Part shown: positions 6,318 through 62,817 of the stretch, one piece after another | How the letters are laid out: every line of letters starts with the position of its first letter | Numbering within the stretch: position 1 is the first letter of the stretch | Sequence record: NZ_CP124633.1 | Source of the DNA: a plasmid | DNA length: 64,000 nt | Reading direction: 5' to 3' (one strand) | Notes under the pieces: model-generated | What the model was told of the DNA's origin: nothing | Seen by the model: the letters and a program-made list of their open reading frames with translations, nothing else | Database searches by the model: none | Position numbers and translations under genes: made by a program

Positions 6318-7060
6318 TCAGGCTAAATTCAAAAGAGGTATTTCATCCCAGGTCTGGCCGTTTAGCAGCCGCCCGTTTGCTTTTTTAGAGCGCTTGACTC
6401 CATCCGCCCCCCATCCGCCCCACTGCTTGAAAAAGAACGCGGAACCGGAGATATCGCACTGACGATGAATGTTGTCGACCCATTCTTGCTGCATGGGACG
6501 CGCTTTCGCGCCTGACTCGCCTCCAACGATCACCCAGTGGATATCGGTCAAGTCTATTTCACCGAGATCTTCCAGAAGGGCTCCGCCGAGAGGAAGCGGA
6601 TTGTGGCATTCACACGGCGCAAGCAGTCGATACGAGGAACGCCATAGGCCTTGTCTTCGACCGATACTCCAAGCCAGGCGTTGGTAGGTGGAACGCGCTT
6701 GCTGAAGTAGTCAGCCAATCGTTCCGCGCGCTTTGTCAGGATTTGAAAGGTATGTTGCGTCGCCTCACGAATGACGTCAAAAATCTGATCGATGTAATGG
6801 TCAGGGACTTTCTCGTGAAACAGATCCGACATGGAGTTTACAAAATAGATAGTCGACTTCTTGCGCTGAAGCGGTTCGCGAAGTTTCTCTGGACGCAGGC
6901 TAAGCTTGAAACCATTTTCATAACCTGGAGTGCCCATGGCCTGCAGTCGGTGCGCCATGTTCTCGGCATAACAATGTTTGCAGCCCGGCGATACCTTGGT
7001 GCACCCCACAATGGGGTTCCAGGTCATTTCTGTCCATTCTATGCTCGTCTGGGTACTCAT
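6318..7060 (-). CDS. DUF5131 (phage Gp37/Gp68, three-Cys motif IEWTEMTWNPIVGCTKVSPGCKHCYA) protein, reading frame broken by a 1-nt deletion in a C/G run near 6578-6580
   Basis: ORFs 6554..7093 and 6318..6551 are N- and C-halves of one protein: ...FLSAEP then +2 frame LLEDLGEIDLTDIHWVIVGGESG...FFFKQWGG; likely start at MSTQTSIEWT (7060) with AGGAG SD. Confidence 0.65.
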
Positions 7061-7292
7061 TGCACTGTAACTCCTGTCGTGCGCGATGCTCATGTAAATC
7101 GGGCGCGAATCAAATGACTATCACCTTAGTGATTGGCCTTTCTGTTCGAGGTCCTGTCAAATTGTAAGTGTAACACATCTATCCAGATAATCTCAGCTAA
7201 ATAAGAATTGCTTAATATGGTATTTGGCTTACAGTCTTATGGGGTGTTAAAACTTTCTTGTCGTCGGCTGGTTTGTGGGCTGTTGGTAGAAA

Positions 7293-8483
7293 CTAAAAAA
7301 TCTCTTTTGGCGAAAATGATTCTGCGCAGAGCACCCAGCGCTCACTTTTCCTCGGCCAATGAGGCCTTACTGGATTCTTTGTCCGCTTTCGAACATCCGC
7401 ATCCAGATTTATGATTTTCCCTTCTTTAGCTAGATCTTTGAATGCGAGTTGCAGATCCGTCGGATAGAGGTCGGTTTCCTCAAGGAAGCTTGCCCAGCAA
7501 TCATTGTCCACGAGCAATGGTGTGGCGGATAGGCGTGTCAGCAAATACTTTTTGGCGAGCATCCTGTTGTCCCGAACATTGACTGGCTCGGGCTGATCCT
7601 CAGGTGAGGAGAAGAGGTCATTAACAGGAAGCCTCTTGCTCGATTGCCGCCTGAGCTTGGTCTCGAACTGACTGACACGCTGAACCATATCCATCTGCTC
7701 GGCGGCCTCTTTGAAGACAATTAGCCCTTTAGAATGTCGCGTGAGATAGATCAGGAAGTACAGGACGCGGTCCATGCCCGGCCGCTCAACGGTAACGTAC
7801 GCAGTCTTGCCGTTGTAGATATCTCCTACCGCCTGGCGGTATTGGGAAACAATAATTTGTCGCCGCTCGGTTGCCGACTCTTTGCCTGAAAACGTGATTG
7901 CCTTACCGAGCAACTCTTCAACGTTCGCTTGCTGGGCCGTCATCGACATTGCTCGGTTGAGGAAGTCGTACATCAGGTTGATGAGAAACTCGGCTCTGTT
8001 CAACGCCAATAGCGGCGCCAGTACCGGTGCGTTGATAACCTTTCGCCAGCCCTTGGGATCAATGAAGAAGAAGGTGAAGCCAAGTTTGGCCCAGCTTGCG
8101 ATATCTTCGATTTTCGTCGTGTAGTCGCCGTGCATGCAGCTGGCGTCTACGACACTGCCCGTATCGTTGGAAAGGAATCTCTGCAGCTTCGCAAAAGCAT
8201 TGTCGTTTTTTTCGATATACAGGGCGCGGAATCTCACCTTTGCGCCATGCTGCTCTTCAAGCGTCTTCGCGCAATCCTTCATCAGGCTCAACGAGATACC
8301 AATGGAGGTGTCCCGCAAGTCATCAGACTCTTCCGACCAGGGGCCGGCGAAGCAGTCGACGTAATTGATCACCTTCTCACTGCGGCCGATGATCATGATC
8401 AGCCGCTGCAAGTAAGTTCTCAGAATGGTGTGCTTGACGTATGCCTGTTCTCTGCCCTGATATTCTATCGGCATCAAAGACAT
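7293..8483 (-). CDS. TcmP-like paralog, 396 aa, with C-terminal wHTH-like tail
   Basis: YVKHTILRTYL...VDCFAGPW pattern homologous to 4966..6300 along most of its length; start MSLMPIEY with perfect AAGGAGGTGA SD. Confidence 0.55.
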   Translation of the reverse strand: MSLMPIEYQGREQAYVKHTILRTYLQRLIMIIGRSEKVINYVDCFAGPWSEESDDLRDTSIGISLSLMKDCAKTLEEQHGAKVRFRALYIEKNDNAFAKLQRFLSNDTGSVVDASCMHGDYTTKIEDIASWAKLGFTFFFIDPKGWRKVINAPVLAPLLALNRAEFLINLMYDFLNRAMSMTAQQANVEELLGKAITFSGKESATERRQIIVSQYRQAVGDIYNGKTAYVTVERPGMDRVLYFLIYLTRHSKGLIVFKEAAEQMDMVQRVSQFETKLRRQSSKRLPVNDLFSSPEDQPEPVNVRDNRMLAKKYLLTRLSATPLLVDNDCWASFLEETDLYPTDLQLAFKDLAKEGKIINLDADVRKRTKNPVRPHWPRKSERWVLCAESFSPKEIF

Positions 8484-8689
8484 TTCACCTCCTTGTTGAC
8501 CCATCTCGGTCTCCTGCCACGGATCGGCTAATCACGTTGAGCGACGTCGTAGTGGCTATACGGTATCGTAGCCCTCGTGGCGTGGCTATGGGGGCGGGGT
8601 ATGCTTAAGTGCTGGTCGCTGAAACCAGTAGAGCGTCGCGGTGTGAATCGCCGCAGGTTTCGTGGAGGCCGTTTCGTTTAAGTCAGGCC

Positions 8690-9145
<456 letters not shown>

Positions 9146-9202
9146 CTATTTCGAAAAACTCGCATTTATTTCGAAAGCCTACAACTTCGATAAGCATTAT
9201 AT

Positions 9203-9226
9203 AAAAAAGGCCACTCAAAGGTGGCC
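9203..9226 (-). terminator. intrinsic terminator after the methyltransferase-helicase operon
   Basis: minus-strand ggccacctttgagtggcc hairpin followed by TTTTTT, 8 nt after helicase stop. Confidence 0.6.
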
Positions 9227-9233
9227 TATCTGT

Positions 9234-11519
9234 TCATGCTGCAATGAGTTGTCGTGCCAACGCCATCTCCACCGAATCTCCGTCTTGGTTCAATGAGTCG
9301 AGACCTGACTCGGGAACGTCTCCCGACGTGCTCTGAGCCACAGCGATCTTCTTGGCCATCAGTTGCAAGCAGGTGATCTGCGAGCTGCCGGCGTAGCCGA
9401 AGAACACCACCCGCACCGGGTGCCTCTGCCCGATCCGCCACGACCGCCGCGCGGCCTGCTGCAGGGTGTACACGTTGTATCCCGTCTGCAGGAACGCGAT
9501 GGTCGGGAAGTCGAGCAAGTCCAGGCCGGTCTTCACCAGTTCCGGGTTGGTGATCAGCACATCGATGCCGCGTTCAACCTGGTCGAGGATCCAGTCCTCG
9601 CGCCGAGAGGTAACGACCGAAGCACGTAGCACTGCCACCTTCAGCCCAGCCTGCTCGAGCACTTTCTTCAGCCTGGACGTGGTGTCGCGCGTTCCGCTGT
9701 AGACCGTGTAGGCCAGGACCTTGCGGCCCTTCGCTTTCTCCTCGAGGCAGAGGTCCAACAGCGCCTGTTCCTTTGGCATCAGTTGCTCGTCGCCGAAGAT
9801 CGCTGGCACGAAGGCCAGTGTGTCCCGGGTTCGCGGATGCTTGACGATCTCCGGTCGGAAACAGCAGTCCGGCCAAGCCAGCAGCACGTTGAGGACCACG
9901 CCCAGGAGCGTGGTATCTCGTCGCGCCAGAGCCTGGCGGAGCTCCGCTGTCAGCGTGGCCGCCAGGCGCTGATAGGCCGAAGCCTGATCCGGCGCCATGG
10001 GCACGTCGACGAGCTCTTCCTGGTAGTCGGGCAGTACGTTGCCGCCGATGTCCCTGAGCTTCAGGAACACGGTGAACGGCAATACGAAGCGGTGGATGCC
10101 CTTCGGGCCGAAGCCGGGAGCCTTCACCGTGCGTACCGAGAGCTTCTTGCCCCGGGCTGTCTTGTGCGAGTCACCATCGCGTTCGGTGTAGATGTCCTTG
10201 AGCACGCCGTGGTCGCGCATGAACGACATGGCTGCTGGAGCCATGCTGCCACGCGCGTTGGGCCGGTAGCCGTCCTCGATCATGCGCTGGGTGAGGATGC
10301 GGAACAGGAGGTAGAACAGGTCGTCGGCGTAGCCGCCCATGAGCGTTCCGGTCAGCAGCACGGTTTTCCGTGCCTTGGCTGCGAGAACGCCCATGGCCTG
10401 GCCCTGGGCCGAACTGCTGTTCTTGTACTCATGCCCCTCATCCACCACCAGCAGGTCGAAGTAGCCATCAGGTAGGTAGCGCTTGATGAACTCGGTCGGT
10501 TGGTAGCCTCCTTCGCCGAAGCCGAACTCGATGTTCGCCATCGATCGCTCCATGCGTTTGGCCTGCCGATCGCTGAAGACGAAGTTGCCCTTGGCGTCCA
10601 TCAGGTTGATGAACTCCGAGACGTTGTCCACCAACATCGTGGCCAGGAAGTCCTCGCCGAAGTCGTTCAGCAGGCGCTCCGCCCTGACCGGGCCGATGGT
10701 TGGAATCCGACACATCGACTTGAGGATCGTTGCGCGCCGGCTGCCGCCGTCAGGCTTGCCTGGCCGGATCAGCGTCCAGAGCGCCCCACGGCAGGAGGAA
10801 CAGGTACGTCGACGGTCACCACGCTCGAACTCCTCCACCGTGACCAGGTTGCCTTCCAGGTCCTCAAGGACCTGGCCGCAATCCGGGCACGCAGCGAGCA
10901 ATTGACCGCCAGCGGCGCGTTTCCTCCAGCAGGCGAGTCGCCAGTGGAAACCCATCCGCATCCGCACGCGGCCGAGGATGAAGAACTCCTGGCGCCCGTC
11001 GTAGGCGTCGCCCATCTGATCTCGCAGCTTGAGCAGCTTGAGTAGAGTATCTGGGCCGTTGAGTACCCAGACGCGGGCGCCTGGGATGGTCTCCAGTATC
11101 TCGCGGCGCCACTTGTAGACCAGGTGCGGCGGAGAGACGACCAGGGTCCGGCGATAGCCGGCCGCGTGCATGACCGCTGCGACAGCGATGGCCATCATGG
11201 TTTTCCCGGTGCCCATCTCGGCGTTGATGATCCCGGCCTGCTCGTTACGGTCCAGCAGCAGGGCGGTGATGGCCTGGACGACCTCGGCCTGGGCCGCGAA
11301 GGGCTTGCGCTTGAGTCGGTCCATCACCAACTGGCGGTGAGCGTTGTCGGATCCGGTATAGACCGGGGGGTTGGAGCGATTGAGCGACTCCAGGAGCTCG
11401 TCGCCGAACTCGTCGATGAAGTCGGTCAGGTTGATGTTCAGGGGGAGGCGGCCAGGGCGGCCGGTTGGGTCAGAGCGTTCATGTGCATCTCCTGCAGGTG
11501 AAGGAAGAAAGCAGGGCAT
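9234..11519 (-). CDS. SNF2-family helicase with Zn-ribbon (CPDCG...CSSCRG) and HhH (IPTIGPVRAERLLNDFG) insertion; true start probably ATG at 11482 (MNALTQPAALAAS...) joined through a C5/C6 homopolymer frameshift near 11449-11453
   Basis: Walker A AEMGTGKT, motif II VVDEGHEYKN, helicase C motifs; strong CAGGAGAT SD serves the +1 frame short ORF that fuses in frame if one C is added. Confidence 0.8.
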   Translation of the reverse strand: MPCFLPSPAGDAHERSDPTGRPGRLPLNINLTDFIDEFGDELLESLNRSNPPVYTGSDNAHRQLVMDRLKRKPFAAQAEVVQAITALLLDRNEQAGIINAEMGTGKTMMAIAVAAVMHAAGYRRTLVVSPPHLVYKWRREILETIPGARVWVLNGPDTLLKLLKLRDQMGDAYDGRQEFFILGRVRMRMGFHWRLACWRKRAAGGQLLAACPDCGQVLEDLEGNLVTVEEFERGDRRRTCSSCRGALWTLIRPGKPDGGSRRATILKSMCRIPTIGPVRAERLLNDFGEDFLATMLVDNVSEFINLMDAKGNFVFSDRQAKRMERSMANIEFGFGEGGYQPTEFIKRYLPDGYFDLLVVDEGHEYKNSSSAQGQAMGVLAAKARKTVLLTGTLMGGYADDLFYLLFRILTQRMIEDGYRPNARGSMAPAAMSFMRDHGVLKDIYTERDGDSHKTARGKKLSVRTVKAPGFGPKGIHRFVLPFTVFLKLRDIGGNVLPDYQEELVDVPMAPDQASAYQRLAATLTAELRQALARRDTTLLGVVLNVLLAWPDCCFRPEIVKHPRTRDTLAFVPAIFGDEQLMPKEQALLDLCLEEKAKGRKVLAYTVYSGTRDTTSRLKKVLEQAGLKVAVLRASVVTSRREDWILDQVERGIDVLITNPELVKTGLDLLDFPTIAFLQTGYNVYTLQQAARRSWRIGQRHPVRVVFFGYAGSSQITCLQLMAKKIAVAQSTSGDVPESGLDSLNQDGDSVEMALARQLIAA

Positions 11520-11586
11520 GCACGTCCCTTTCGGGTATCGGCATACCCTGCAGGGTGGAGTGGAAGGAATCGCCGTGGGGGCGAGG

Positions 11587-13032
11587 TCAGTAGTCGCTGG
11601 GGAGCAACAGGGTGGTCGAACTGCGATCAGCCTCAGTGATGATCCAGAGCCTGGATTCGCCGCCGGCGTCGATGTCGTAGGACGACAGCAGCCGATCGCC
11701 GAACTTCAGGGCTCTCTGGTTGGTGTTCCAGTCTTCCTGGTCCAGCGTCCCCCAATCTCCCGCCAGATGGCGGTTCAGCAAGGGCGCTGGGTTGAGTTGA
11801 CCGATTTCCACCAGGTGGCTAACGGCAGCGGTCATTACGACCTGGCCAGGGTTGAACAGCAGCGGTTCCGGGGTAGGCTCAGGTTGGGGCTCTTCAGCTT
11901 CTTCCGTGGTTGCGGCCGAGGAGCTGATGGTCAGCACGCGGCCCTGATTGACCGAGGAAGGTGTCATTTCCCATGCCCGGATGATCGGGATGAAACGGTC
12001 GGTGAGGATCCTCACCTCGGTGATGTTGCCGTCGTCGTCTTCGGTGAATTCGGTCTTGCGAACCTTGTCCTTGTAGGTGTCACCCTTCACGACCAGGATC
12101 CGGCCCGACTTCGATTGCACGACGCCGGATATCGCGCCGGCGGCCAAGGCCAGGGCCAGGTGCCAGCGAGACAGCTCGCGGACTGGTGGGCGCGGCTGCA
12201 GCCCCGCTTGCGCGAAGTGCAGGTTGAAGTCAGGCCAGAGACCTCGCAGCCGCTGGATTTCACCGGCGAACTGCTCCGGCTCCAGGGTTACTCGGTAGAA
12301 GTGCTCCAGCTCGCTGGTGGCCGGCAGAACCACGTAGGGTTCCCATGGCCAAGCCGCTGGAATTTCCTCGGCCTTTTCCTGGCCCGCGTCGATCGCCTGC
12401 AGGCGAGACCTCACCTGATTGGCGTCCGCCCGGGCCAGGTCCTGCCGACGGACCCGGATGCCGAAGATCACCACCTGCTTGAAGGTAGGATCCGCGGCTG
12501 CGTAGATGTGCAGGCCAGTGAAGTGGTTGCTCAGCCAGCCAGACAGCTCATCGTCCAAGACGTAGTGAGGAACAATCAGGACCATGACGCCGCCGTACTG
12601 CAGCAACGGCAGGCAGCGCTGGTAGAACGCTTTCTCCAGACGCCGGCGGCCGCTGCCCTGGTACTGCGACGCACCGGAGTGGTCCGCCACCAGGTCGCCA
12701 TAAGGCGGGTTGAGCCAGAGCAGTCCGAACGACTGCCTGCTGATCATGGTGTCGAAAAGGTCACTGTGCAGCACTCGGTCAAGCAAGCCACGAGCGTGGT
12801 CGGCGCGCTCGCGGTCGTACTCGACAGCGAGGGCTTGGACCTGATCGCGGCCGAGGGTGTGCGCTGCCTCAGCCAGGGCAACCCCCTCACCGGCGCAGGG
12901 ATCACAGATCCTCATTCTGCCCGACGGGGCAGGAGCGAGGGCCTGCAGAGCGCGTTCGAGGGTGACCTCATCGGTAGGGAAGTAGCCGTTGCGTGCAAAG
13001 TTGCGCGCCAAGCGCGGGAACATGAGGGCCAT
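11587..13032 (-). CDS. gamma-class N6-adenine DNA methyltransferase with ~200-aa C-terminal domain of unknown function (...WIITEADRSSTTLLLPSDY)
   Basis: motif I DPCAGEGVA before motif IV LNPPYGD; 481 aa; operon partner of the SNF2 helicase. Confidence 0.8.
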   Translation of the reverse strand: MALMFPRLARNFARNGYFPTDEVTLERALQALAPAPSGRMRICDPCAGEGVALAEAAHTLGRDQVQALAVEYDRERADHARGLLDRVLHSDLFDTMISRQSFGLLWLNPPYGDLVADHSGASQYQGSGRRRLEKAFYQRCLPLLQYGGVMVLIVPHYVLDDELSGWLSNHFTGLHIYAAADPTFKQVVIFGIRVRRQDLARADANQVRSRLQAIDAGQEKAEEIPAAWPWEPYVVLPATSELEHFYRVTLEPEQFAGEIQRLRGLWPDFNLHFAQAGLQPRPPVRELSRWHLALALAAGAISGVVQSKSGRILVVKGDTYKDKVRKTEFTEDDDGNITEVRILTDRFIPIIRAWEMTPSSVNQGRVLTISSSAATTEEAEEPQPEPTPEPLLFNPGQVVMTAAVSHLVEIGQLNPAPLLNRHLAGDWGTLDQEDWNTNQRALKFGDRLLSSYDIDAGGESRLWIITEADRSSTTLLLPSDY

Positions 13033-13062
13033 GGGGCCTCCTTGAGTCTGAGAGGGATGGCT

Positions 13063-13666
13063 CAGGCTTGCGCCTGAGCATCGGTGGTAAGAATGCTTTC
13101 GCGGATCAGCTCACCGAGGGTGGGCTCGAGCACGTCGACCCGCAGGGCGAGTCGCCAGGCGCAGACGTTGCCGATCGTCCCGGGTAGGGCCGTCAACATC
13201 TGGTGCTGGGTGAGGACCTCCATCACCGGCTCGCGCCAGTGCTGCAGGAGGGGAGCGGACAGGTTTCCATCACCAGCGGCCAGAGCCTCTGGTGTGGATC
13301 CTCATCGCGCTGCAGGAGTGCGAAGGCGAGGTGATTGCCTCGGTCGGGCGCCGAGGCGCGCCGATCGAACAGCCAAAGATTGAGCAGGCTGCCGAACAAC
13401 GTGCCGCGGAACTGGCGGGTGGTGCGTTTCTCCAGGAGATCCTGGTTTGGGAAGACAGGTAAGCGGCGGCCGTCCACGATGATGTGGAAATGGTCGATGC
13501 CATTTTCTTCCCGGCCCAGCGTCAGCCTGGCCAGGAACTCTTGTGTCACGGTGTCGCGGCCCCAGGCCGAAAGAAAGACCAGGTTGCGCTGCTCGTCGCA
13601 CACGCAGGCGTCGACGTACAGGTCTGGGCACTCTTCGATCTGGTAGAGCGGGGTGGGACTGGGCAT
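13063..13666 (-). CDS. hypothetical protein; ORF 13223..13666 (147 aa) plus overlapping 53-aa frame (MEVLTQHQMLTALPGTIGNV...) probably one ~200-aa protein split by a C-run deletion near 13250-13253
   Basis: CAGGAGG SD before 13666 ATG; +2 frame after ctcccctcc reads ...LPLLQHWREPVMEVLTQ... continuously. Confidence 0.45.
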
Positions 13667-13757
13667 AGGAACCTCCTGGAAGGAGGAGCCACGCCGCCCT
13701 CAAGGGGCGGTGAAGCCCCTCGGGGTGTAGTCCAACTGGTGCAGGGGAGCGTGGTGG

Positions 13758-14012
13758 CTACCGAACGCTCTTGGTGTGAGGGTCGAACCTGAGCCCATCG
13801 GCTTGGTGCAGCGGCCCTTGGCCGATCAGGAAGACCTGGCAGAGGTACTGATCGCGTAGCGCGACAGCCGCTTCCGCCTGCTCCAAGGTCAGCGACAGCT
13901 CCTCGATGAACAGGTCGATGAGCTCGTCGTCGCCGGCGACGTCGTTGTTGGACAGTTGATCCTCGAGGTAGGCGAGGGTTTCCTGGGTGAGGTTGGTGAA
14001 CAGTGGGTTCAT
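13758..14012 (-). CDS. small highly acidic protein (84 aa), possible DNA-mimic/anti-restriction-type protein
   Basis: AGGAGC SD; EDQLSNNDVAGDDELIDLFIEELSLTLEQAEAA; flanked by CCCTCAAGGG hairpins. Confidence 0.45.
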   Translation of the reverse strand: MNPLFTNLTQETLAYLEDQLSNNDVAGDDELIDLFIEELSLTLEQAEAAVALRDQYLCQVFLIGQGPLHQADGLRFDPHTKSVR

Positions 14013-14079
14013 GGTGTGCTCCTGGTGGTAGACGAGGAGCGCCCTTGAGGGAGCCCCTCAAGGGAAGTGGTTGGTGCGG

Positions 14080-14442
14080 TCAGGCTTGGTGTTCTTGCGT
14101 CAGACGGTCTCGCCACTCCTGGTTGGTCTCATCGTGAGCCAGATCCAGGAACTCCAGCGGACAGCCGTAGTAGAACGGGCCTGCTTTCTCCGGAATGGTC
14201 TTGTAGCCCCATTGCCCGGCCGAGCAGTCCAGCAAGTGCAGCTCGATCATGGTGATCGAGTGACCGGCCGGCTTGCCGAAATAGAATCCGGCAAGGTGGA
14301 AGGTTCGTTTTACGACAGTCCAAAGTTCATTGCCGGAGACTGCGTGTGCCAGCACCTCGGTGCTGCCTGCGAAGGTACTGGTTGGGGCCAGCAGCTCACG
14401 CAGCAGGTCTTCCTTCGTCTGATGTGAGAAAAGCCATCCCAT
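14080..14442 (-). CDS. hypothetical protein (120 aa)
   Basis: ORF with CAGGAGCAC SD. Confidence 0.5.
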   Translation of the reverse strand: MGWLFSHQTKEDLLRELLAPTSTFAGSTEVLAHAVSGNELWTVVKRTFHLAGFYFGKPAGHSITMIELHLLDCSAGQWGYKTIPEKAGPFYYGCPLEFLDLAHDETNQEWRDRLTQEHQA

Positions 14443-14544
14443 AGGTGTGCTCCTGTGGTTGGCCAGGTCTCCCTGACGGGAGAACCCGGCAGGGGTGGGT
14501 AGGGTGTTGCTTCAGCGTGTTGCGCGCTCAAGGCGCTGGAGGAG

Positions 14545-15336
14545 TCAGCTGGTTGACAGAGCAACGCCAATAGCAGCAGCGCTTACAGCCATTGCGCTGA
14601 TAGCCTGGTGGGTGGAACAGGTTGTAGTAGCACTCCGGGCTGCCGTGCGGCGCTCGTAGTCATCGTCTAGCGACTGATTGACCCCGGCTTTGGCTCCAAC
14701 ATGGAGAGGGCACGCTTTGCGGGTCCACACTTGTTTTTTGAAGTCGAGCTCATAGCCCAGCGCGCCGAGTCGCACACATTGTTGGCGTAGTCGCTTGCGG
14801 TCGACCGTGGTGTCCAGCTTGACGATTTCGCCTAGCGGCCAGACCGTCCCGAACAGTTCTGCATCTGCGTCTGTGTCCAGAGTGGCGGCCTGCTCTGCAG
14901 GAGCCGGAGGGTCCATACCGAAAGGCGCGTCGTCCCCGGTTGCAGCGGGGCGCAGAGGCTTCGGTTTCTGGGGCGACTTCGGCGGTGCCGCCGGTGCGGC
15001 AGTGGGTTGCTGGATCGCGGGCACTTCGTCGAGCGGATCCACCTCATTGCCAGAGAGACGCTCTGCCTCCTCGTCGCTGAGGTTGTCCACGTCGTCCAGA
15101 GTCATGCTGTCGAGCTTCGCGCGGATCTCGACGACCAGCCGGCCGCCGGTGGTGTAGTAGGAGGGACGGATCTCGGTGATGGCGAAATCACCGCGGTACT
15201 TGCCTTCGATGTGCTGGTCCAGGAGAGCGTCCTTGATGACGAACTCCCCGATCGAGGTCGAGAGCTTTCCCACGTTGAACTCGCCATTGCGACCGTTGAT
15301 GGTTCGAATGGCCAACTGGCCGGGTATGTTGATCAT
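14545..15336 (-). CDS. DUF3275-like ICE protein with Pro/Ala-rich acidic linker
   Basis: ORF 14545..15459; start taken at MINIPGQLAIRTINGRNGEF because upstream extension is R/S-rich junk. Confidence 0.5.
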   Translation of the reverse strand: MINIPGQLAIRTINGRNGEFNVGKLSTSIGEFVIKDALLDQHIEGKYRGDFAITEIRPSYYTTGGRLVVEIRAKLDSMTLDDVDNLSDEEAERLSGNEVDPLDEVPAIQQPTAAPAAPPKSPQKPKPLRPAATGDDAPFGMDPPAPAEQAATLDTDADAELFGTVWPLGEIVKLDTTVDRKRLRQQCVRLGALGYELDFKKQVWTRKACPLHVGAKAGVNQSLDDDYERRTAARSATTTCSTHQAISAMAVSAAAIGVALSTS

Positions 15337-15391
15337 GGCGTGACCTGCGAAAAGGATGATCCCGCCGAAGCGGGATCGTGGTGAGGGAGAA

Positions 15392-15742
15392 CTACTCGGT
15401 ATCCGGGTTGCCCTGGAGGCTTTCTTCCTGCAGCTCGATGCGCAGGTAGGAAGGCTCATCGGACGGCTCGACTATCGAGAGGACCAGCAGCGCGAGCGCG
15501 CGGTCCTGCCCCTCTTCCTCCTTGTGGTACAGGTGGAATTGGATGTGCTTCGCGGTCGGCTGGAGCGAAAGCTCCTGCCAGGCGGTTTGAACGACACTGG
15601 CCAGCCGGGTGCCCATCTCGTCGACCCTGGCAGGGTTGGCGAGATAGACCAGGCGCAGCCAGGCCGCGTTGGTGAGAACGATCGGGAGTTTGAGGTACGC
15701 AGCAGTGTGACCTGCGCTGGAGTGGTTGTTGAGAGAGGTCAT
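15392..15742 (-). CDS. hypothetical ICE protein (116 aa)
   Basis: ORF with GGAGAC SD. Confidence 0.5.
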   Translation of the reverse strand: MTSLNNHSSAGHTAAYLKLPIVLTNAAWLRLVYLANPARVDEMGTRLASVVQTAWQELSLQPTAKHIQFHLYHKEEEGQDRALALLVLSIVEPSDEPSYLRIELQEESLQGNPDTE

Positions 15743-15977
15743 GAGAGGTCTCCGAATACGCAGGCCTCTCCCGCGGGGATGAGGTCCCCGCGTGGGTGGG
15801 TAGGATGCACTCCATCACTTGCGTGATGCGACCGCGCTGCCGAGTGCTGTGGCGGTCTTGGGTGGGTTAGCGCTTGCGCGCCGGAGCCTTAAACCCTGGC
15901 TCCTTGGGAGGCGCTGTCAACGACAGCGAGCCAATTCGAATTCGGGGGCTGGCGGGATTTCCCGCCGGCCGGATTGC

Positions 15978-16685
15978 TCAATCGTCATAAAGCGGCAGGC
16001 CCTTGAGCGTGGGCGCGAATGGATCAAGTACCAGGAGCCGGATGTCTGCTTGTCCCGCGAGGTGAAGCAGATCGACCAGGTGTTCGTCGAGGCCGAAGTC
16101 AAGCTGTTCTTGTCGAAGAGCGGCTGCGGTCATCTCCAGGATCTCCAGACACTCATCCGTCCAAGGGGTGTTGTGCAAGCGAAAGCCCACGGCACCGTGC
16201 TCGTTACACCAGAAGAGCGATACCAACACCGAGGGCAAGCGGATTGGCATCTTGGTCGAGAACCTTTCGTAGAGGCTATTCCACGCCCTGATGGGTAGAT
16301 GTGTTTTTCTGATCTCCCAGCAGCGGTTATAACCGCCGCCGAACGAAAGGTATCGAACGACACTCTCGGCTTCGGTCAGTGAGTATTGATCTCCGATAAG
16401 CTTTTTTCTGCCGTCCTGCTCACCGTAGATGCTGTAAAGTACGTTTCTCACTATTCCTTGGTGAGGGCATTTTTCAACTCTTTCATCGTCTAAGTCTTGG
16501 GTTACCACGGCGAAATCGCCATTGAAGTAGCACTGCTCGCACTGAAAATATTCGTCTGGGAGGTGCTGCTGGGTTTCATGCAGTGCGCGGTAGCACGGTA
16601 GATTGTCGCCTTCGTCAGTGATCTGCAGGTTTCGCTCGATGCGGAAACTCTCATAGCCGCGAATAAACGGATTGAGTTGAGTCAT
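15978..16685 (-). CDS. Cys-rich hypothetical protein (CYRALHE...CEQCYFNG...KCPHQG), lower-GC cargo
   Basis: 235-aa ORF, GGAGAT SD, local drop in GC. Confidence 0.55.
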   Translation of the reverse strand: MTQLNPFIRGYESFRIERNLQITDEGDNLPCYRALHETQQHLPDEYFQCEQCYFNGDFAVVTQDLDDERVEKCPHQGIVRNVLYSIYGEQDGRKKLIGDQYSLTEAESVVRYLSFGGGYNRCWEIRKTHLPIRAWNSLYERFSTKMPIRLPSVLVSLFWCNEHGAVGFRLHNTPWTDECLEILEMTAAALRQEQLDFGLDEHLVDLLHLAGQADIRLLVLDPFAPTLKGLPLYDD

Positions 16686-16785
16686 GGGGTATCTCCGGTT
16701 GCCGGGAAGCCCATGCCCTTGGAGGCTATGGACCTCCAGGTGAGTAGGGGCGCCGAAGCGCCCAGGTGATGTCGAGTTGTTGTAG

Positions 16786-17064: not shown

Positions 17065-17168
17065 GGTGAGTTCCAATTCGTAATCAAATCGGAGAGGTCA
17101 CCTCCCAACAGGGGTGATGACCCCGTCTGGGTTGAATTAGAAGATGAACATGGGCAAAAGGGTAAAGC

Positions 17169-17366: not shown

Positions 17367-17439
17367 GGTGATTCTCCTTTCGGTAGGAAACACCAGTCCC
17401 AAGGGGACTGAGGTCCCCTAAATGGGAAATGTTTGGCGG

Positions 17440-18480: not shown

Positions 18481-18504
18481 AAAATGAATGTCAATACCCT
18501 TGAA

Positions 18505-53862: not shown

Positions 53863-54077
53863 TTCGAGTCCTCCCGGCCGATCTGCATGAACGTGCTTCC
53901 GCCCGGGGCGCCGATGATCTCTAGCGCTTTCACCTCCACCTTGGCGGACTCGATGATCACCGAACTCACATGAGCCACCGCTTTCGCGCGTTCGATATCC
54001 AGAGGCTTCTCTTCGTCAAGCAGGCCTTCGATGGTGGCAAAGAGGTGATTACGCAGATCCTCAATCTTGTTTTTCAT
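53859..54077 (-). CDS. hypothetical small protein (72 aa)
   Basis: ORF coupled to dnaB. Confidence 0.4.
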   Translation of the reverse strand: MKNKIEDLRNHLFATIEGLLDEEKPLDIERAKAVAHVSSVIIESAKVEVKALEIIGAPGGSTFMQIGREDSK

Positions 54078-54788
54078 GCTCGACCTCCTGAATGGTGCGC
54101 TTGAGCTTGCTGATGACGCGGATTGCGCTCTTCAGCTCAGGTGGATAGCGATGGATGGAGTTGCGGCGCATGCGTTCGGCCCGGGTGATGAGCTCCAGGT
54201 TGTCGATGACGACGTTCTGCTTGTTGTTGTCCTTGAAGCAGACGCAATGGCCGGTTGGGATGGGGCCGAAGTGTTCTTCCCAGAGCAGGATGTGCATGCC
54301 CTTCCAGTCCCGGGGGGATAACCGGTATCCGAGATCTTTCGTTGCAGGTAGCCATCAGCGCTGACCCGTGTACTGCCGACTGGGAGCCATGTGTGGGGCT
54401 TTTGCCCCTTCTTGAACTGCGTTTCCGACGAGCGTCCTCGCGCGAGAAGCCCCTTCATGCCGCAGTTCCATGGCGTATGCCCCTTCTTGAACTGCGTTGC
54501 ATTGCCTTCGATTTGAAGCTTCCGGCCGCAGGCCTGCAGAATCTGCTTGGCGAGCTCTGGGCTTTTTTTCAGTCCTAAACGGTGGGCTTTGGCGTAGATC
54601 TGCTGGACCGTTTTGTTCAACCTGGCTGCTAGGACCTCGTTCGGCATATCCGGATACAGGCGCAACAGCACCAGTTCCTGTTCGGCAGTCCAGATTTCGC
54701 GGATGCAGCGCTCCTCTCGGTTGCTGAATTTGCTGCGGGCACGCACCAGGGCCTCGTAGGCGATGGTCGAGAGAGCAGAGCGAGTCAT
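54061..54788 (-). CDS. phage-type HNH endonuclease, frame broken by 1-nt deletion in C6/G6 run at 54312-54317
   Basis: ...WLPVGSTRVSADGYLQRKISDTGYP then +1 frame RDWKGMHILLWEEHFGPIPTGHCVCFKDNNKQNVVIDNLELITRAE. Confidence 0.65.
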
Positions 54789-55486: not shown

Positions 55487-56172
55487 TACGCGCCCCCCTT
55501 GCAGCAGGTTGAGCCCTGCTCGGTGGCGGAGCGGTCCAGGCGCTCGATCTCGGCTAGCACCAGGGCGCCGGCGCGTACCAGGTTCTCGCGCGCCGACTTA
55601 GGCTTCCACCACTCTTCGTCCCAGGGCCAGAACAGTGCAGAGCCATTCCGAATGCCGCCCGGCCAGTCGGTGCCGATGCCGCCGGCATGGAGTGCGTAGC
55701 AGCCGGCTGCCTGGGCGATCTGGCCAGCGCTAGCGTCGTCGTTGCTGGTATCGAAGCCTTCGACGGTGATCTGGCGCCGGCGCTCGGCCTGTACATCGAG
55801 CCAGGCCTGCGGAACAGGGGAGAGGTTTGAAGTTGGGTAAATTCGGTCTGCGACCTGCCGTACCCGGTCGACAATATCCAGGGCTGCTACGTTGCCCAGT
55901 GCGACCTCCAGGGCGGCGAGCAGGTTGGCCATCAAGAACTGCTCACGCTCGTCCGCGTGGCTTTTTGCGCTTGGGCGCCTGTTCCAGTCGACCTGTGCTG
56001 AATACCTCGCTGTTACCGGGTCTGGCTCGCAGTAGGACGGCCCGATGTGAACCTGGCAGTCCTGGCATTCAATGGCACAGTTCCAGGCATCGGTGTCGAG
56101 CAGCTCGGGTTCCAGCATTCGAATGTTCGTGCTGCTGCAGAGCGGGCAGGGCTTGAGCTTGGGGTCACTCAT
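55486..56172 (-). CDS. Lar-family-like zinc-ribbon protein (restriction alleviation-type N-terminus) with C-terminal domain
   Basis: MSDPKLKPCPLCSSTNIRM...CQDCQVHIGP. Confidence 0.5.
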   Translation of the reverse strand: MSDPKLKPCPLCSSTNIRMLEPELLDTDAWNCAIECQDCQVHIGPSYCEPDPVTARYSAQVDWNRRPSAKSHADEREQFLMANLLAALEVALGNVAALDIVDRVRQVADRIYPTSNLSPVPQAWLDVQAERRRQITVEGFDTSNDDASAGQIAQAAGCYALHAGGIGTDWPGGIRNGSALFWPWDEEWWKPKSARENLVRAGALVLAEIERLDRSATEQGSTCCKGGA

Positions 56173-56999
56173 GGCCTGCCTCCCTGCCCGTCGTCGGTGC
56201 TGGGCTTAGCTTGGGAGGAGCCGGCGGCGAGCAGGTCGGCCAGCTCGTTTTCGGTGTCCCAATCGATCTGCTGAAACACATCCTTTATCTCGTCGAGTGC
56301 CGAGCGGCATTTGTTCCAGTTCGCGTACACCTTGTCTTCGTCGTAGATGTTCCGGCCCCGGTACGCGTCGACCTGCTCAGGATCGAGCTGCGCCTTGATG
56401 GCGGCGAAGTGTTCGAGGCGGACCAGGCGGTAGCCATCAGGCACGCTGTGCTGAGCCTTGGCGGGCGGGGCTGAGCCTGCGAGAACTTCACGCACCTTCT
56501 CGATGCCATGCATCACCGTGGTCGGCCATGAGCCATGGTCGGCAGCGTTGACCACTACCCGCAGGACGTGCTCCAGCTCCGCGACCCTGGCCTGGGCGAC
56601 GTCGCGCTGATTCAAGGCCTTGGCACAAGCCTCGCTGAGCAGGCGCTCATGCTGTTCTGCTGCCGCATCGAGACCGATTGGACTCAGGTGCTCTCCGAGC
56701 GGTCGCACGTACTGACACACCGGGCCGTTATCGGTATCGTGGATCGACAGCACGAACCAACCGGCGCCTTCGGGCCGCGTTGGGATCCACTCGCTGTATC
56801 GTTGGTCCGAACGGGCAGAGTCGTAGAGGCGAGGCGCATCCGACTCCATGAAGACGTTCTGCAACTCCAGTCCAAGCCGGCGCAGAGTTTCCTGCGCCTC
56901 GCTGGAAGAGCAGTTGTCGGCCAGGTCCGGATAGTTCGGATGGGTCCAGAAGCCGAACTGATCGCGTTCGACCAGGTGGGCTTGAATCATAGGCTTCAT
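56169..56999 (-). CDS. hypothetical protein (276 aa)
   Basis: start MKPMIQAH with GAGGGGGG SD. Confidence 0.45.
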   Translation of the reverse strand: MKPMIQAHLVERDQFGFWTHPNYPDLADNCSSSEAQETLRRLGLELQNVFMESDAPRLYDSARSDQRYSEWIPTRPEGAGWFVLSIHDTDNGPVCQYVRPLGEHLSPIGLDAAAEQHERLLSEACAKALNQRDVAQARVAELEHVLRVVVNAADHGSWPTTVMHGIEKVREVLAGSAPPAKAQHSVPDGYRLVRLEHFAAIKAQLDPEQVDAYRGRNIYDEDKVYANWNKCRSALDEIKDVFQQIDWDTENELADLLAAGSSQAKPSTDDGQGGRP

Positions 57000-57492
57000 G
57001 CCAGCCCCCCTCGCTCATGCCAAGCACTGCACTTGCCTCTGCGGCCAGTTGCTGGCCTTCCGGGCTAGGCGAGCTGCCGACGAAGAGCATCAGCCGCTCG
57101 ATGACCTTCACGGTGTCCTGGGAGGGTTGGGCGAACTCGGCCAGGTGATCGATGGCAGTCGCGATATTCCAGATAGCCCTGTTCATGTCCCGCTGGATCA
57201 TGTGGATCGAGCTGGCATTGGCCGCGATGGCCAGTTGCGACTTCGTCTGCAACAGTAGGTCGTGGGCGATTTGGAGCAGGGCGTTCTGCAGGGGCTGTCC
57301 ACAGGCACGCTGCTGAGCGCGAACCGGAGCGACAAGGCCCTGCAGCATCGCAGCACCTTCAGCCTCGACCAGCAGATTGTCGGAAGCACCGGCGGCAGCG
57401 CCTGCTTTGGCCATGTAGCCTTGCACGTAGGCGTCGAACTGGGTCTCGGCGATCAGGCTCAGGATGAGGTTGTTGCGGTTCTGGAGGTTCAT
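56996..57492 (-). CDS. hypothetical protein; current frame reads through G6 run (57005-57010) to 56728, with G7 it would stop at 56996 and couple to downstream gene
   Basis: protein-like sequence up to ...AVLGMSEGG then junk. Confidence 0.4.
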
Positions 57493-58227: not shown

Positions 58228-59093
58228 TCAGCGCCCTCCCTTGACCAGTGCTGCAACCGCCTCCGGCGTCAGCGCCAGGAAGCGGTCAGTCCACTCGGGA
58301 AAGACCTCGATGGCCAGGTTGCGGATGATTTCCAGCGCGGGCGCGGATGTGCGATTCGAGGGTTGCCGCGTTTCGAGGCGGTGCGCTGGTAGCCCGCGCG
58401 ATGCTGCGTTGCGAAACACGACGGCATCCGGGACAGTCGTTTCGAGCACAGAAATGTCCTGATGCTCATCGAAGATGGCACGCACATTCTCGTGAATCGC
58501 CCGGGAGTCATTGGTCTGGTCCAGGCAGTTGATGACGATCTGTACATTGGGAATCCGCATGCCGAGGCGCTCGTAGGGACGCAGTCCATCGAGCATTTGC
58601 ATGGTGCCGCGGTTGAACTCGCGGGCAGTGAGCATGTTGGGCTGTAGGGGGAAACAACCAGATCCGATGCGAGCACGACCATTTCGAGTAGGGCGGAGCG
58701 CGCACCTTGGGTGTCGATCAACACCAGGTCGTAGCCCTGTTTCAAGGACGGCATGAGGTTTGCCAGCCGGAGCCGGCCATCGGGCGCCTGGAGCAGTAGG
58801 TTGTTGAGCTGGTTGTTCTGGTCGTTGGAAATCACGACGTCCAGGTTGGGGATAATCGTCCTGGAGATGATCCTCGCTGGGTCAGTTATGTTGGCGGCGA
58901 GCAGGTCGTAGATGCCGCCCTGGGCGACTTCAGGAAGCTCGTAGTACGAGGATAGGGAGGGCTGGACGGGGTCCAGATCGATGAGGAGGGTTCGTATGCC
59001 TGCGTCGGCGCAAAATGCACCGAGGTTGGCGGCGGTGGTGGATTTCCCTACACCACCCTTGGTGGATACAATTGAAGTCGCTTTCGCACTCAT
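58228..59093 (-). CDS. parA: ParA/Soj partition ATPase, frame broken near 58636-58650 (G5 run)
   Basis: N-half STKGGVGKST Walker A in ORF 58269..59093, C-half MLTAREFNRGTMQMLDGL in ORF 58228..58635; adding one C gives DLVVSPLQPNMLTAREF. Confidence 0.8.
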
Positions 59094-59186
59094 GTCTACA
59101 GCCTCTAATGTGGGGTCATTAGAGGCTGCTAAACAGACTCGTTGTAACGGGAGTGGAAACCCTTCCTAGACGACCTTGGTCCAAAT

Positions 59187-59252
59187 GGCTTTTAACCAAT
59201 TGGTTGGCTTTTAACCAATTGGTCGTAGGTTCGAATCCTACACGACCCACCA
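59187..59252 (+). other. att core: 3' 49 nt of tRNA-Lys(UUU) (TTGGCTTTTAACCAATTGGTCGTAGGTTCGAATCCTACACGACCCACCA) preceded by a 17-19-nt tandem duplicate of the anticodon-arm segment; no 5' half of the tRNA
   Basis: read directly; anticodon loop CTTTTAA, T-arm GGTTCGAATCC, CCA end. Confidence 0.8.
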
Positions 59253-59364
59253 TTTTCGACGGGGCGAGTTGCATAGGTCTAGGAAGGGGTGTTACGCCGG
59301 TTCTTGTCTAGCAGCCGTCTGGGCCGAACATTAGGCCCGCATTGACGTGATGTCAATATGGAAT

Positions 59365-59396
59365 AGCCCGCCTATTTAGGTGGGCTTTTCTGTTTC
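59365..59396 (+). terminator. hairpin agcccgcc-tattta-ggtgggct followed by TTTTCTGTTTC
   Basis: read directly; adjacent 6-bp inverted repeat ATTGAC-gtgat-GTCAAT at 59341..59357. Confidence 0.45.
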
Positions 59397-59588
59397 TAAG
59401 GCCCTGAAGCCATGGGATTGGCCCTGAGCTGGCCGCTCATACCTATCTGTAGGCGTAGCAAAGCACCTCCGACGTAATCTGCGATTACAGAGGGTCATGC
59501 GGTGATAGCCGCGAGAATTCAGGGCTCTGCGAGTGCGCCGGCGTTGATGTGCAGAGGCCCTCGCTTATTTCAGATTTTCCCTACCGGC

Positions 59589-60890
59589 CTACCGATCGGC
59601 CAACGGGGGGCTTGCTTTCTTTCCGACAACGGTACCCCATCTAGGAGCGCAGTTGCCCTCGGTTGTCGTCAGGCTTGCCTGTCGCAACAGGTGTTGGGCC
59701 AGCAGCGCGAACAGCAAGTCCTGTTCGGAGTTGTCCGCTGGTGGGGGTACCGCGTCGGCTCTTCTTTGAGTACAGAAGGGTGGTGAGTTGTAAGCCTGAA
59801 TCTCCTGATCAGACCCCGTACTCGTCACTTCTGCTGTGGGTACCTGTGTCGACGGACTGCTTCCTCTCTGAGTTGGGCGTGGCAGCGCCGGCCTTGAATG
59901 AGCCGCCTTCTGCGGCGATCCACTGTAATCGACCTTTTGGGTCTGTGCCACGGCGCCCTGAGCTAGGCTTCGCTCGTTAAGCACTGCCCGAATCTGATCG
60001 TGATCCGTCTCGATATAGCTCATTGTTGTTTGGATGTTGGAGTGGTTGAGTAGATCCTTGGCGACATGGATATTGCGCTCATGCTGCTTCATCAAGTCGG
60101 AAGCCAGGGTGTGCCTGAATCGATGGGGCGTCATTCGTACCCCGGTCTTCTCGGTCAACTTTCTGTACATCGCCTCGACTTGGTCGGCATTCATTTCCTT
60201 GCGTGCATAGTGGCGTGAGAAACGATTCACATTGAATAGCTGGTCGTGGTGGCTCATGCTTACCTGCTCGGCTTCCTGGAGTAGCCGCCGTATATGGGGG
60301 GCTATCCCATCGGTGATGGGGACGGAAAACTCTCGGTGGGTTTTCTCTGTCTCAGCCCGGATCAGGATCATTTTTCTTTTCCAGTCCACATCGCACTTAC
60401 GAATGCACAGCAGCGCATTCAGACGGATGCCGGTTTCGTAGAATGTCTCGAATACGCACCGCCAGAACCAAACCGGAGTGATTCGTGCGCGTTCCCCCGT
60501 GCAGTGCTCGGAGCTATCTAGCACTTTCAGCCAGGAGCGAGCGCTTTGTATGGCATCGAGTGCTACTGTCTTGCTCGGCCGCTTTGGCGGCGTCACTCCG
60601 GTTTTCTTGAAAGGATTGATTTGGCTGTGGGTCAGCAGTTCGTACTCAATGGCATATCCCCAAACGGTGCGCAGGTGGCTCGAGTAAGTGTTCCAACTGC
60701 GTTTGGATAGCCCCTGCTCCAATACCTTTCGTCTCCATTCCAATACACTCCGATGAGTGATTTCCTGCACGGTGACTGTGCTGCCGAAGTGCTTCATGAG
60801 CGCTCTGGTTGCTGCTCGATAGGTCTTCTGGCTGGCCTCTCTGAGGTCGTGTGCGAAGAGATATTCCTCGGTCAATTGAAGTGGGGTCAT
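59589..60890 (-). CDS. int: tyrosine recombinase / integrase (XerC-like)
   Basis: HRFRHTLASDLM...TTMSYIETD catalytic box; C-terminal ~90 aa low-complexity tail may be artefactual. Confidence 0.85.
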   Translation of the reverse strand: MTPLQLTEEYLFAHDLREASQKTYRAATRALMKHFGSTVTVQEITHRSVLEWRRKVLEQGLSKRSWNTYSSHLRTVWGYAIEYELLTHSQINPFKKTGVTPPKRPSKTVALDAIQSARSWLKVLDSSEHCTGERARITPVWFWRCVFETFYETGIRLNALLCIRKCDVDWKRKMILIRAETEKTHREFSVPITDGIAPHIRRLLQEAEQVSMSHHDQLFNVNRFSRHYARKEMNADQVEAMYRKLTEKTGVRMTPHRFRHTLASDLMKQHERNIHVAKDLLNHSNIQTTMSYIETDHDQIRAVLNERSLAQGAVAQTQKVDYSGSPQKAAHSRPALPRPTQRGSSPSTQVPTAEVTSTGSDQEIQAYNSPPFCTQRRADAVPPPADNSEQDLLFALLAQHLLRQASLTTTEGNCAPRWGTVVGKKASPPLADR

Positions 60891-62817
60891 TCCACACCCC
60901 CTTCGGCATCGGTGATGACCGTGAGGCTTGGGTTGTCCAGAGGCTGCACAGGGAACAGCAGTTTGGGATCCTGGAGCAGGTATGCCTTGAGCTCTTTCGT
61001 CTTGCGAGGACCAGAAACCTTGATGGTCCAGATGTTCAGGTTCTTATTGGTCTTTCGGTGAAGACCCTGTTTCTCGAACGCGCGTTGCACCAGCTTCCAG
61101 CCGGTCGTCTCCTTGGCCTGGGCCAGCTTTTCGAGCTCTGGATGCTCATGGACATAACGCTTGAAGATTCCTGGTGTGACCAGCATGGCGGTCCCGTCGA
61201 CGGTATGTATCAAGGCTTTGGTGTCGTTGATGAACAGGCGACGGGCCGCGGTGCCAGCTTTCATCCAGCCAACGAATCCCTGTCCCAGATCAGTGCTTCT
61301 GCTAGGCATAAATACGTCTTCAACTGTTTCAGGAGCGCAATCTGTTGGCTCCTTGTTCCCTAGTGGCTGCTGTAGGTTCTCCTCCCCGCGAGTGTTCGTA
61401 GGAGAAGCAGCCGGTGAGTCGTGGCTAGTGTCTAGCTCTTCTGGTGGCGAATTGATATTACCAAGAAGTGCGTACAAATCGTCTGTTTCTTCTTGATCAT
61501 CAGTTGAGGGTTTCGCAATCGCCTGTATGTCGTTTGACGGTTTCGCAATGGTCGGCGCAGGCTGGCGGAGCGTCATCTTGGCTTCTGGCGCCTGTCGCTG
61601 TTCAATCGGATCGTTGGGGATTTCGCAGGTCGTTTCCGGCTTTTCAGGGGAGGCGTTGCCCTCTTCAATAACGAGTGATCCGCTGTAGGAATCAGGCCGC
61701 TCGGCAGGGTCAGCCCAGATCAAGGCTGGAGCGATCTTGAGGAGCGTGAACTTGTTTCTCCACCCAGCACCATTGTCTATCGTGGCCGTCCAGATGGCCT
61801 TGTCTTCGGCGTTCGTCTGGATGACGGCCTGGTCCTGGAGCATGTTGAAGAATGGCGCGTTGGAGGAGGGGACCCCTTCGATTCCCTGAGCCAGCAGGTA
61901 GGCTCTCAACTGATCGGCCGCGGGCTTGCTCACCAGCCAGAGTGCGTCCTGAGTCAGCCATCCATCGGACGGGCCGCTAGGTTGATTCAACTTGAACTTG
62001 TCCTTCACCAAGAAGCGAAGGCCGTCTGCCAACTGCCGCTGCAGCGACTGCTTCGGTGCAGCCAGCGCTCGATCCGGATTACCCCCAGCTCCTGCGCGAC
62101 TGAGGCCTGGTCTGCCTTCACGACAATCTCACCGAGGATCCCGGCGTGCTCGTACTGCCCTGCGAACAGATAGATCAATTGAGCCCACAGCTCTGGAAAG
62201 CGACTGAGCCAGTCGAGTGCAGTGCGCGGTAGCAGTTGGTGGATGAGTAGCGCTGAGGCTGCGCCGTGGAGTTGGTATTCGCGGGACTTCACATACTTGA
62301 AGCGGTAAGGCTGGTTGATCGGTCCGTTCCAAGGGTGCCAGGTGCTGCCGTCCTGCAACTCCACCTGCAGGTCGACGACGATCTTGCCTATGTCGTGAGC
62401 CAGGGCACCATAAGCCGCGGCAGCCGACCAGGCTTCAGCCTGGGCTGACTGTGACTCCGGCGCTGCGCCGATCGGGAGCAAATAGGTCTGTCGTACCTTC
62501 AGTGCGTAGGCCACGATCTCCAAGCCGTGATCGATCATCCCGCCTGGATGGGCATGGTGATGGTTCTCCGAAGCAGGGAGTTGCTGGACCAGCTCGGCGT
62601 AGTTGGCCAGTGGTCGGCGGTAGATCTCCTCGAATTGCTGCTTGGACAGCGAGGCGCGCTGCCAGATGTTCTCCAGTAGCTGCCGCCGACGAGGCGTGCC
62701 GAGCAGCTCCATACTGCTCAGAGGAGGGAGGAATCCCCCGGGGGCAGCTTTGGTTAGTGGGCTGAGGGAAGGCTTTCTGGAGATCCAGGAAAGGAGTTGA
62801 AACATGGGAGGCTCCAT
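60887..62817 (-). CDS. traI: MobH-family relaxase TraI (HD-domain, PFGI-1 class), frame broken at G5 run 62081-62085
   Basis: HD motif HHAHPGGMIDHGLE in ORF 62005..62817; C-domain ORF 60887..62032; with G6 reads ...VAQELGGNPDRALAAPKQSLQRQLADGLRFLVKD. Confidence 0.7.

Follow-up and report, generated by a model that had tools for sequence, protein, structure and literature searches.

The stretch of DNA analysed here, 64,000 nucleotides (nt) of plasmid record NZ_CP124633.1 (hereafter the window), has a G+C content of 60% and holds most of its genes on the minus strand. Judged from its sequence, it is the circular (attP) form of an integrative and conjugative element (ICE) of the pKLC102/pUM505 family (pKLC102/PAPI-1) from Pseudomonas aeruginosa. 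The genes follow one another, according to the pUM505 and pKLC102 annotations, in the order traD, a small cargo region, a helicase gene with a DUF6094 gene, the type IVb pilus genes pilL to pilM, topA, ssb, parB, dnaB, parA, attP(tRNA-Lys), int and traI(MobH), an order found likewise in pUM505, pKLC102 and chromosomal ICEs of the pKLC102/PAPI-1 family. Several of these genes look broken. An earlier note on this DNA had listed eight of them as interrupted by the loss of one base from a run of G or C and had blamed homopolymer under-calling in the assembly. Comparison with relatives of the element bears out the eight sites and adds five others. With a probability of about 0.93, the frameshifts would be consensus errors of the assembly, in which one base has dropped out of G/C runs, and not signs of gene decay.

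Thirteen one-base deletions

At each of the eight genic sites the run is one base shorter in the window than in the relatives that cover it (Table 1), apart from a few exceptions in other assemblies that are described below. The genes for partition (parA), transfer (traI) and the pilus (pilL), which had been singled out as affected, all carry such a deletion. The earlier note had placed five of the runs correctly; the runs in the helicase gene, parA and traI lie at the positions given in the table, and the interval 11449-11453, to which the helicase run had been assigned, reads CGGCC. Interruption is too strong a word for two of the eight. Every site alters the gene named, but the open reading frame (ORF) of the helicase loses no length: the shift exchanges about 12 N-terminal codons, and from an alternative ATG at 11519 the frame runs on for 761 amino acids (aa) against 749. 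At 57005 only the last few codons are altered, with read-through of 89 further codons to a protein of 254 aa, and the gene that follows (56169-56999) is intact, its ATG overlapping the TGA of the 165-aa gene.

The addition of one base per genic site gives eight proteins that are found exactly, from residue 16 to the end, in 2-13 reference loci, in agreement with the claim that a single base restores homology-consistent products. At 6578, for example, the restored protein contains ...RFLSAEPLLEDLGEIDL... and matches 13 reference loci exactly. Comparison with pKLC102-type references, proposed in the earlier note as a check, returns the longer run and an intact gene at the genic sites. Around 11441 the more distant relatives read GGGGGA+A or GGGAGGA, likewise one base longer than the window. 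Exact look-ups of the 179-aa DUF5131 product, the 274-aa ParA and the 254-aa read-through protein returned no record. On first view this would make the alleles private, but it is weak evidence in that frameshifted genes lack a called product in these National Center for Biotechnology Information (NCBI) records. Such products are missing for the 201-aa gene in one related assembly (L046) and for TraI and TraU in another (L021), a gap that we ascribe to the NCBI annotation pipeline marking these genes as pseudogenes.

The count of eight proved too low, as five more one-base deletions lie outside confidently called genes. By location, the 13 sites are divided among solid genes (eight), a doubtful RefSeq hypothetical (one) and intergenic DNA (four), and the sequences affected thus include parA, traI, pilL and the helicase gene as well as DNA between genes. 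The claim that all runs err in the same direction extends to the larger set: 13 of 13 one-base indels are deletions.

Table 1. One-base deletions in the window and other features of the element. Changes are written from the relatives to the window; fractions give the relatives with the longer run; L numbers designate related loci.
Position	Strand	Change	Gene or feature	Reading frame in the window	Restored length, aa (annotated)	Run in relatives
6578-6580	-	G4 to G3	DUF5131 gene (restored ~6318-7093)	ORF ends at 179 aa	258 from first in-frame start (247)	G4 in 10/10 panel loci and in L040, L041, L046
11441-11445	-	G6 to G5	SNF2/DEAD helicase gene, 9234-11488, ~12 codons in		751 (749)	G6 in L040 (zero-SNP) and L041; G5 in L046
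13250-13253	-	G5 to G4	201-aa hypothetical gene, 13062-13666	cut to 147 aa	201 (201)	G5 in 11/11 panel loci; G4 in L046
30416-30419	-	G5 to G4	pilL/TcpQ-domain gene, 29797-30968	split into ORFs of 206 and 268 aa	390 (374)	G5 in 7/7
54312-54317	-	G7 to G6	HNH endonuclease gene, 54061-54788		242 (242)	G7 in 10/10
57005-57010	-	C7 to C6	165-aa hypothetical gene, 56996-57492, run 6-12 nt before stop		165 (165)	C7 or GC6 (7 nt) in 11/11
58647-58651	-	G6 to G5	parA/soj, 58228-59093	ORFs of 274 and 135 aa	288 (288)	G6 in 11/11
62082-62086	-	C6 to C5	traI/MobH-family relaxase gene, 60887-62817	ORFs of 270 and 381 aa	643 from first start (639)	C6 in 8/9
15385-15387		G4 to G3	intergenic, ~49 nt upstream of DUF3275 gene start in relatives such as L005			GGGG in 10/10
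16746		AA to A (gtAAgggg)	intergenic; only deletion outside a G/C run
19584-19588		G6 to G5	between pilM and a 129-aa gene, inside a doubtful plus-strand hypothetical coding sequence (pUM505 RefSeq)			G5 also in L046
19902-19904		G4 to G3	intergenic			GGGG in 8/8
51564-51565		G3 to G2	intergenic			GGG in 12/12
4966-9204			cargo module
8662-9204			IS3-family transposase remnant
39245-39439	-		crpP
43007-43953			57-bp direct-repeat array
59186-59223		19-bp tandem duplication	attP core			single copy in 14 reference att sites
59204-59251			tRNA-Lys 3' fragment, 48 nt
59589-60890			int (tyrosine integrase)

Relatives and sibling assemblies

More than 40 related loci, among them pUM505, pKLC102, pY89 and many P. 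aeruginosa chromosomes, were collected through exact-protein look-ups of intact neighbour genes. A flank-anchored census of run lengths was made on the first 39 loci, and L040, L041, L042 and L046 were compared separately. Among these relatives are copies of the same element with 0-1 substitutions, which together cover the entire window. Four matching stretches contain no mismatch. The first, L046 (CP124626.1, strain 2021CK-01161), spans positions 1-21516 and shows four one-base deletions in the window together with one T run that is short in L046 and not in the window. L040 (ABLKDX040000004.1) spans 1589-23027 with seven one-base deletions in the window, chromosome CP137915.1 (L024) spans 18090-39796 with three, and several chromosomes (L015-L019 and L022) span 59203-64000 with one. 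A single mismatch is found in a second part of CP137915.1 (L042; 36111-57841, three one-base deletions in the window), in CM142193.1 of GCA_054881555.1 (L038; 42520-59204, four) and, outside the repeat array, in pUM505 (17399-64000, eight, plus a 19-bp duplication).

In net terms, the window differs from clean relatives by 13 one-base deletions, no one-base insertions, one synonymous single-nucleotide polymorphism (SNP) and one 19-bp tandem duplication in attP. An excess of 13 deletions over no insertions and one substitution in 64 kb is far beyond chance. At all genic sites every relative in the census has the longer run, with one locus (L021) at 62082 as the single exception, and L021 is itself an assembly that bears deletions of this kind. 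Among all relatives, short runs occur otherwise in L046 at 11441, 13250 and 19584 and in the more divergent L027 (G5) at 19584. The sole substitution, at 46633, is T in the window and C in pUM505, L038, L042 and L045; it lies in a ParB-family gene and could be either a real SNP or a consensus error.

A fourteenth candidate, at 13722-13725 (G4 against G5), was rejected, as the G4 of the window is also present in pKLC102, L040, L046 and L008/L011/L012. By this sequence comparison, the site, a cccctc(g)gggg palindrome located between two small genes, varies genuinely in length.

The assemblies that share some of the short runs are informative about their origin. L046 has no substitution relative to either the window or L040, and the two differ, the window and L046, at five homopolymers. 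They have the deletions at 11441, 13250 and 19584 in common, while L046 is full-length at 6578, 15385, 16746 and 19902 and carries a private T7 to T6 change at window position 4599. The 761-aa helicase, a product of the G5 allele only, is recorded in just three contigs, one of which is L046. L021 (GCA_028638125.4) is 100% identical to window positions 59203-64000, including C5 at 62082, and has three further G/C-run deletions just past the end of the window, in a region that lacks calls for TraU and other genes. The deletion sets of the window, L046 and L021 therefore overlap without being identical. Across this otherwise identical DNA, the loss recurs at long runs and is idiosyncratic at short ones, the pattern expected of a consensus error that is part systematic and part stochastic. 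The three are related isolates or copies and not necessarily the same DNA.

Other contigs of strain 2021CK-01161 are ICE fragments too. The assembly contains linear 'plasmid' contigs of 1.3-6.5 kb, of which L047 and L049 are annotated ICE fragments (a TraG N-terminal domain and a CBASS-like module), while L051 (6402 bp) is devoid of annotated features. These small fragments point to a troubled assembly around the element in this strain.

Two stretches of DNA outside the ICE in these assemblies are clean but too poor in long runs to be informative on errors elsewhere in the genome. The 10-kb chromosomal flank of L021 has no indels relative to L016 and L022; it has no G/C run of at least six, and only ~0.7 errors would be expected there. 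The 10.5-kb mer plasmid of 2021CK-01161 has no indels relative to pKPC-038c, again with no G/C run of at least six and, by hand estimate, a similar expectation. In samples of ~10 kb each from L016, the ICE DNA (1-11302) contains six G/C runs of at least six in 11 kb, and the adjoining core chromosome (11400-21302) contains none. An ICE rich in such runs, next to sampled chromosome without them, would be disproportionately vulnerable to errors that shorten runs.

Spectrum and origin of the deletions

With the corrected sequence taken as truth, 12 of the 13 deletions fall in G/C runs and their frequency climbs steeply with run length. Runs of three are shortened in 1 of 1268 cases (0.08%), runs of four in 3 of 276 (1.1%), runs of five in 2 of 49 (4.1%), runs of six in 4 of 14 (29%) and runs of seven in both cases (2/2, 100%). 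None of the 45 A/T runs of at least five in the window is altered. Five of the 13 deletions are in runs of four or less, and the overall density in the window is ~0.2 per kb. On the plus strand, ten deletions are in G runs and two in C runs, an asymmetry that is not significant (62% expected, P about 0.1 by hand estimate).

Such a spectrum matches the known residual errors of long-read-only assemblies of high-GC genomes. In PacBio-only assemblies of high-GC genomes, systematic C/G homopolymer deletions truncate essential genes despite coverage above 300x (ARAMIS study, PMC8574707). An HGAP/Quiver assembly of Streptomyces albus SM254 retained 205 residual indels per 7.17 Mb, nearly all of them in G or C homopolymers (PMC4832174). 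The systematic errors of nanopore sequencing are likewise homopolymer indels that cause frameshifts (Homopolish, PMC8011154). In all of these cases (PMC8574707, PMC4832174, PMC8011154), as in the window, the changes are deletions in C/G runs without accompanying substitutions, essential genes are truncated, one base corrects the defect and relatives have the longer run. In departure from these cases, one deletion in the window is in an AA dinucleotide. The sequence most likely derives from long reads without effective short-read polishing, the platform being deduced from the errors. On such platforms, run length is read from signal duration or pulse counts, and G/C runs in high-GC genomes are under-read systematically by one base. 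This bias passes into the consensus regardless of the depth of coverage. The outcome is errors that are deletions only, that become likelier with longer runs and that make the genes containing such runs look frameshifted.

The alternative is that the deletions are real: slipped-strand mutations in the ICE, for instance in a mutS- or mutL-deficient lineage from chronic infection, that have left the element decaying and non-transmissible, its relaxase, pilus and partition genes being inactive. This is very unlikely, yet several observations speak for it and against consensus error. In P. aeruginosa mutators, 96% of indels are located in G:C homopolymers, mostly of 5-7 bp, at a rate that goes up with run length (PMC4702332, PMC3764201). 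Hypermutators deficient in mutS or mutL thus share with the window the bias to G:C runs, the dependence on length and the frameshifts; the bias and the length dependence also fit genuine mismatch-repair slippage and on their own are non-discriminating. The three deletions common to the window and L046 and the one common to L021 could also be produced by inheritance. Non-genic sites make up 4-5 of the 13, against ~12% expected from the distribution of runs in pUM505, a marginal excess (p roughly 0.02-0.06) that points, marginally, toward purifying selection on real mutations. The density in the window moreover exceeds the residual PacBio error density of the S. albus assembly ~7-fold, from which it would follow that the platform or coverage was poorer, or that the element escaped polishing.

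The composition of the changes speaks against slippage. P. aeruginosa mutS lines accumulated 690 base substitutions against 108 indels, and insertions outnumbered deletions 3.3-fold (Dettman 2016, PMC4702332). Natural mutS/mutL sub-lineages have a SNP:microindel ratio of ~5:1 and no more than 219 microindels in any genome (Marvig 2013, PMC3764201). Hypermutators show ~5-6 substitutions per indel (98.8% of mutations being transitions), more insertions than deletions, indels mainly in runs of at least five and no more than ~0.03 indels per kb. The window, in contrast, has one SNP to 13 deletions, no insertions and five deletions in runs of four or less, which slip rarely. Under the spectra of these two studies, a set of 14 changes would include 13 or more indels with a probability of about 6e-11, and 13 indels would all be deletions with one of about 5e-9. 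Even the most mutated branch of natural hypermutators has a density ~6 times lower, and the probability of at least 13 events in 64 kb is about 6e-7. If a density of ~0.2 per kb were real and genome-wide, ~1 gene in 5 would be frameshifted, which would be incompatible with a living cell. Sibling-like copies of the zero-SNP element differ solely at homopolymers, the other relatives retain the longer run and the intact gene at each site (save L046, L021 and L027, as above), and no known mechanism restricts the mutation of an element to -1 slippage. The claim of systematic homopolymer under-calling over independent pseudogenisation is in this way supported by relatives with 0-1 substitutions, by the deletion-only spectrum and by deletion sets that differ between assemblies.

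Mixed origins have also been weighed. It is extremely unlikely that the longest tracts (6-7 nt, in parA, traI, the HNH gene and the helicase gene) are heterogeneous, phase-variable on/off switches of which the consensus took the off length, with artefacts confined to the short runs. Classical contingency tracts usually have at least 8 nt, and the tracts here are shorter. Among the relatives, no +1 alleles are seen, and all but L046, L021 and the more divergent L027 (G5 at 19584, outside genes) have the in-frame length. At genic sites a shortened tract is confined to the error-bearing L046 and L021 and is absent from every clean assembly. The run-length relationship is continuous down to runs of 3-5 and into intergenic DNA, and a smooth law of this form points to one process rather than two. 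What this explanation has in its favour is that homopolymers are discussed as reversible switches in mutators (Dettman et al., PMC4702332) and that deletions in runs of at least six recur wherever another error-bearing assembly covers them (11441, 19584 and 62082). A related proposal is highly unlikely, namely that the -1 changes at these longest tracts are real, recur in a clinical lineage and, by slipped-strand switching, silence conjugation and partition during infection, while the short-run deletions are assembly noise. Finally, the short runs might be functional if the frameshift were bridged on the G/C runs, either through programmed ribosomal frameshifting or through slippage in transcription. 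Certain bacterial genes do have homopolymer tracts that allow transcriptional slippage, but a programmed shift would be conserved among relatives. The clean relatives have the longer run and encode each of these proteins in one frame, and intergenic sites are equally affected; the chance of this explanation being correct is practically negligible.

Consensus error in the assembly has consequences for how the record is used. At face value, it describes a decaying, non-transmissible ICE in which ~11% of genes (8/~75, an estimate) are pseudogenised, with the relaxase gene, a pilus gene and the gene of the partition ATPase among them. Mobility typing, counts of pseudogenes and inferences on evolution would all be led astray by it. 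The reasoning of the earlier note, that real deletions would leave the element non-transmissible, is sound, while its premise is very unlikely. The element itself, a relative of pUM505 and pKLC102 with a crpP gene, is probably intact and mobile; it is a known kind of ICE, and the frameshifts bring no biological news. In practice, polishing or re-sequencing should come before any gene is called a pseudogene: the source assembly needs short-read or homology-based polishing, and the sibling assemblies (2021CK-01161, GCA_028638125.4 and the contigs L047, L049 and L051) probably need it too.

Architecture and cargo

The assignment to the family rests on an attachment site in the 3' part of tRNA-Lys, a tyrosine integrase gene beside a MobH-type relaxase gene, parA (soj) at the opposite end, the type IVb pilus cluster, the 57-bp repeat array and nucleotide identity of 97-100% to pKLC102 and pUM505. 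In a megablast search of plasmid records, window positions 17399-64000 are colinear with pUM505 (NC_016138.1) 97226-123322 followed by 1-20442, and pKLC102 (NC_019202.1) is ~97% identical over window positions 1-4792 and 9199-18000. A search of Escherichia coli genomes with the window gave no match. The integrase gene int is next to the MobH relaxase gene traI on one side and, across attP, to parA on the other, with the tRNA-Lys 3' fragment separating parA from int. A tRNA scan of the window found no complete tRNA, only this attP fragment. Integrated copies differ in that their integrase gene abuts chromosomal genes, and the adjacency of int and parA across attP indicates that the window represents an excised, circular ICE (or a tandem junction).

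Relative to the pUM505/pKLC102 family, the window is set apart by a 19-bp duplication in attP and by genes that look broken owing only to run-length errors. The duplication is a perfect tandem repeat (TGGCTTTTAACCAATTGGT x2) within the attP core, in the part of the tRNA-Lys 3' fragment that corresponds to the anticodon arm. A single copy of the unit is present in all 14 reference att sites (the attP of pUM505 and the attL/attR of chromosomal copies). The duplication could be a real product of recombination or slippage at the palindromic AACCAATTGGTT, or a further assembly artefact.

The window is a mosaic with respect to pUM505. Outside the repeat array, its right 46.6 kb (17399-64000) differs from pUM505 by one SNP, eight one-base deletions and the tandem duplication of 19 bp in attP, and positions 1-4792 on the left are only 97.9% identical. 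This mosaic form is found intact in other chromosomes (L040 and CP137915.1). The repeat array consists of 16.6 copies of a 57-bp direct repeat (84% matches) and is situated between DUF2857/STY4528-type replication genes and AcaB/DUF3158 genes. It is the same in CP137915.1 (L042), and its register differs from the pUM505 record. Presumably, it corresponds to the repeats that have been described as the oriV of pKLC102.

The crpP gene is 100% identical to pUM505 crpP, which is annotated as the ICE-associated CrpP fluoroquinolone-resistance determinant. pUM505 carries a 54-kb chromate/mercury cargo ending at ISPst3, whereas the window is without it and has a small cargo module instead. Neither pKLC102 nor pUM505 has this module at the corresponding position. 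It encodes a 444-aa protein with a weak match to a GMT-like winged helix-turn-helix (wHTH), the DUF5131 protein, a 403-aa protein with no Pfam match and the IS3-family transposase remnant. Of these, the 403-aa protein is found widely, in 1223 index blocks.

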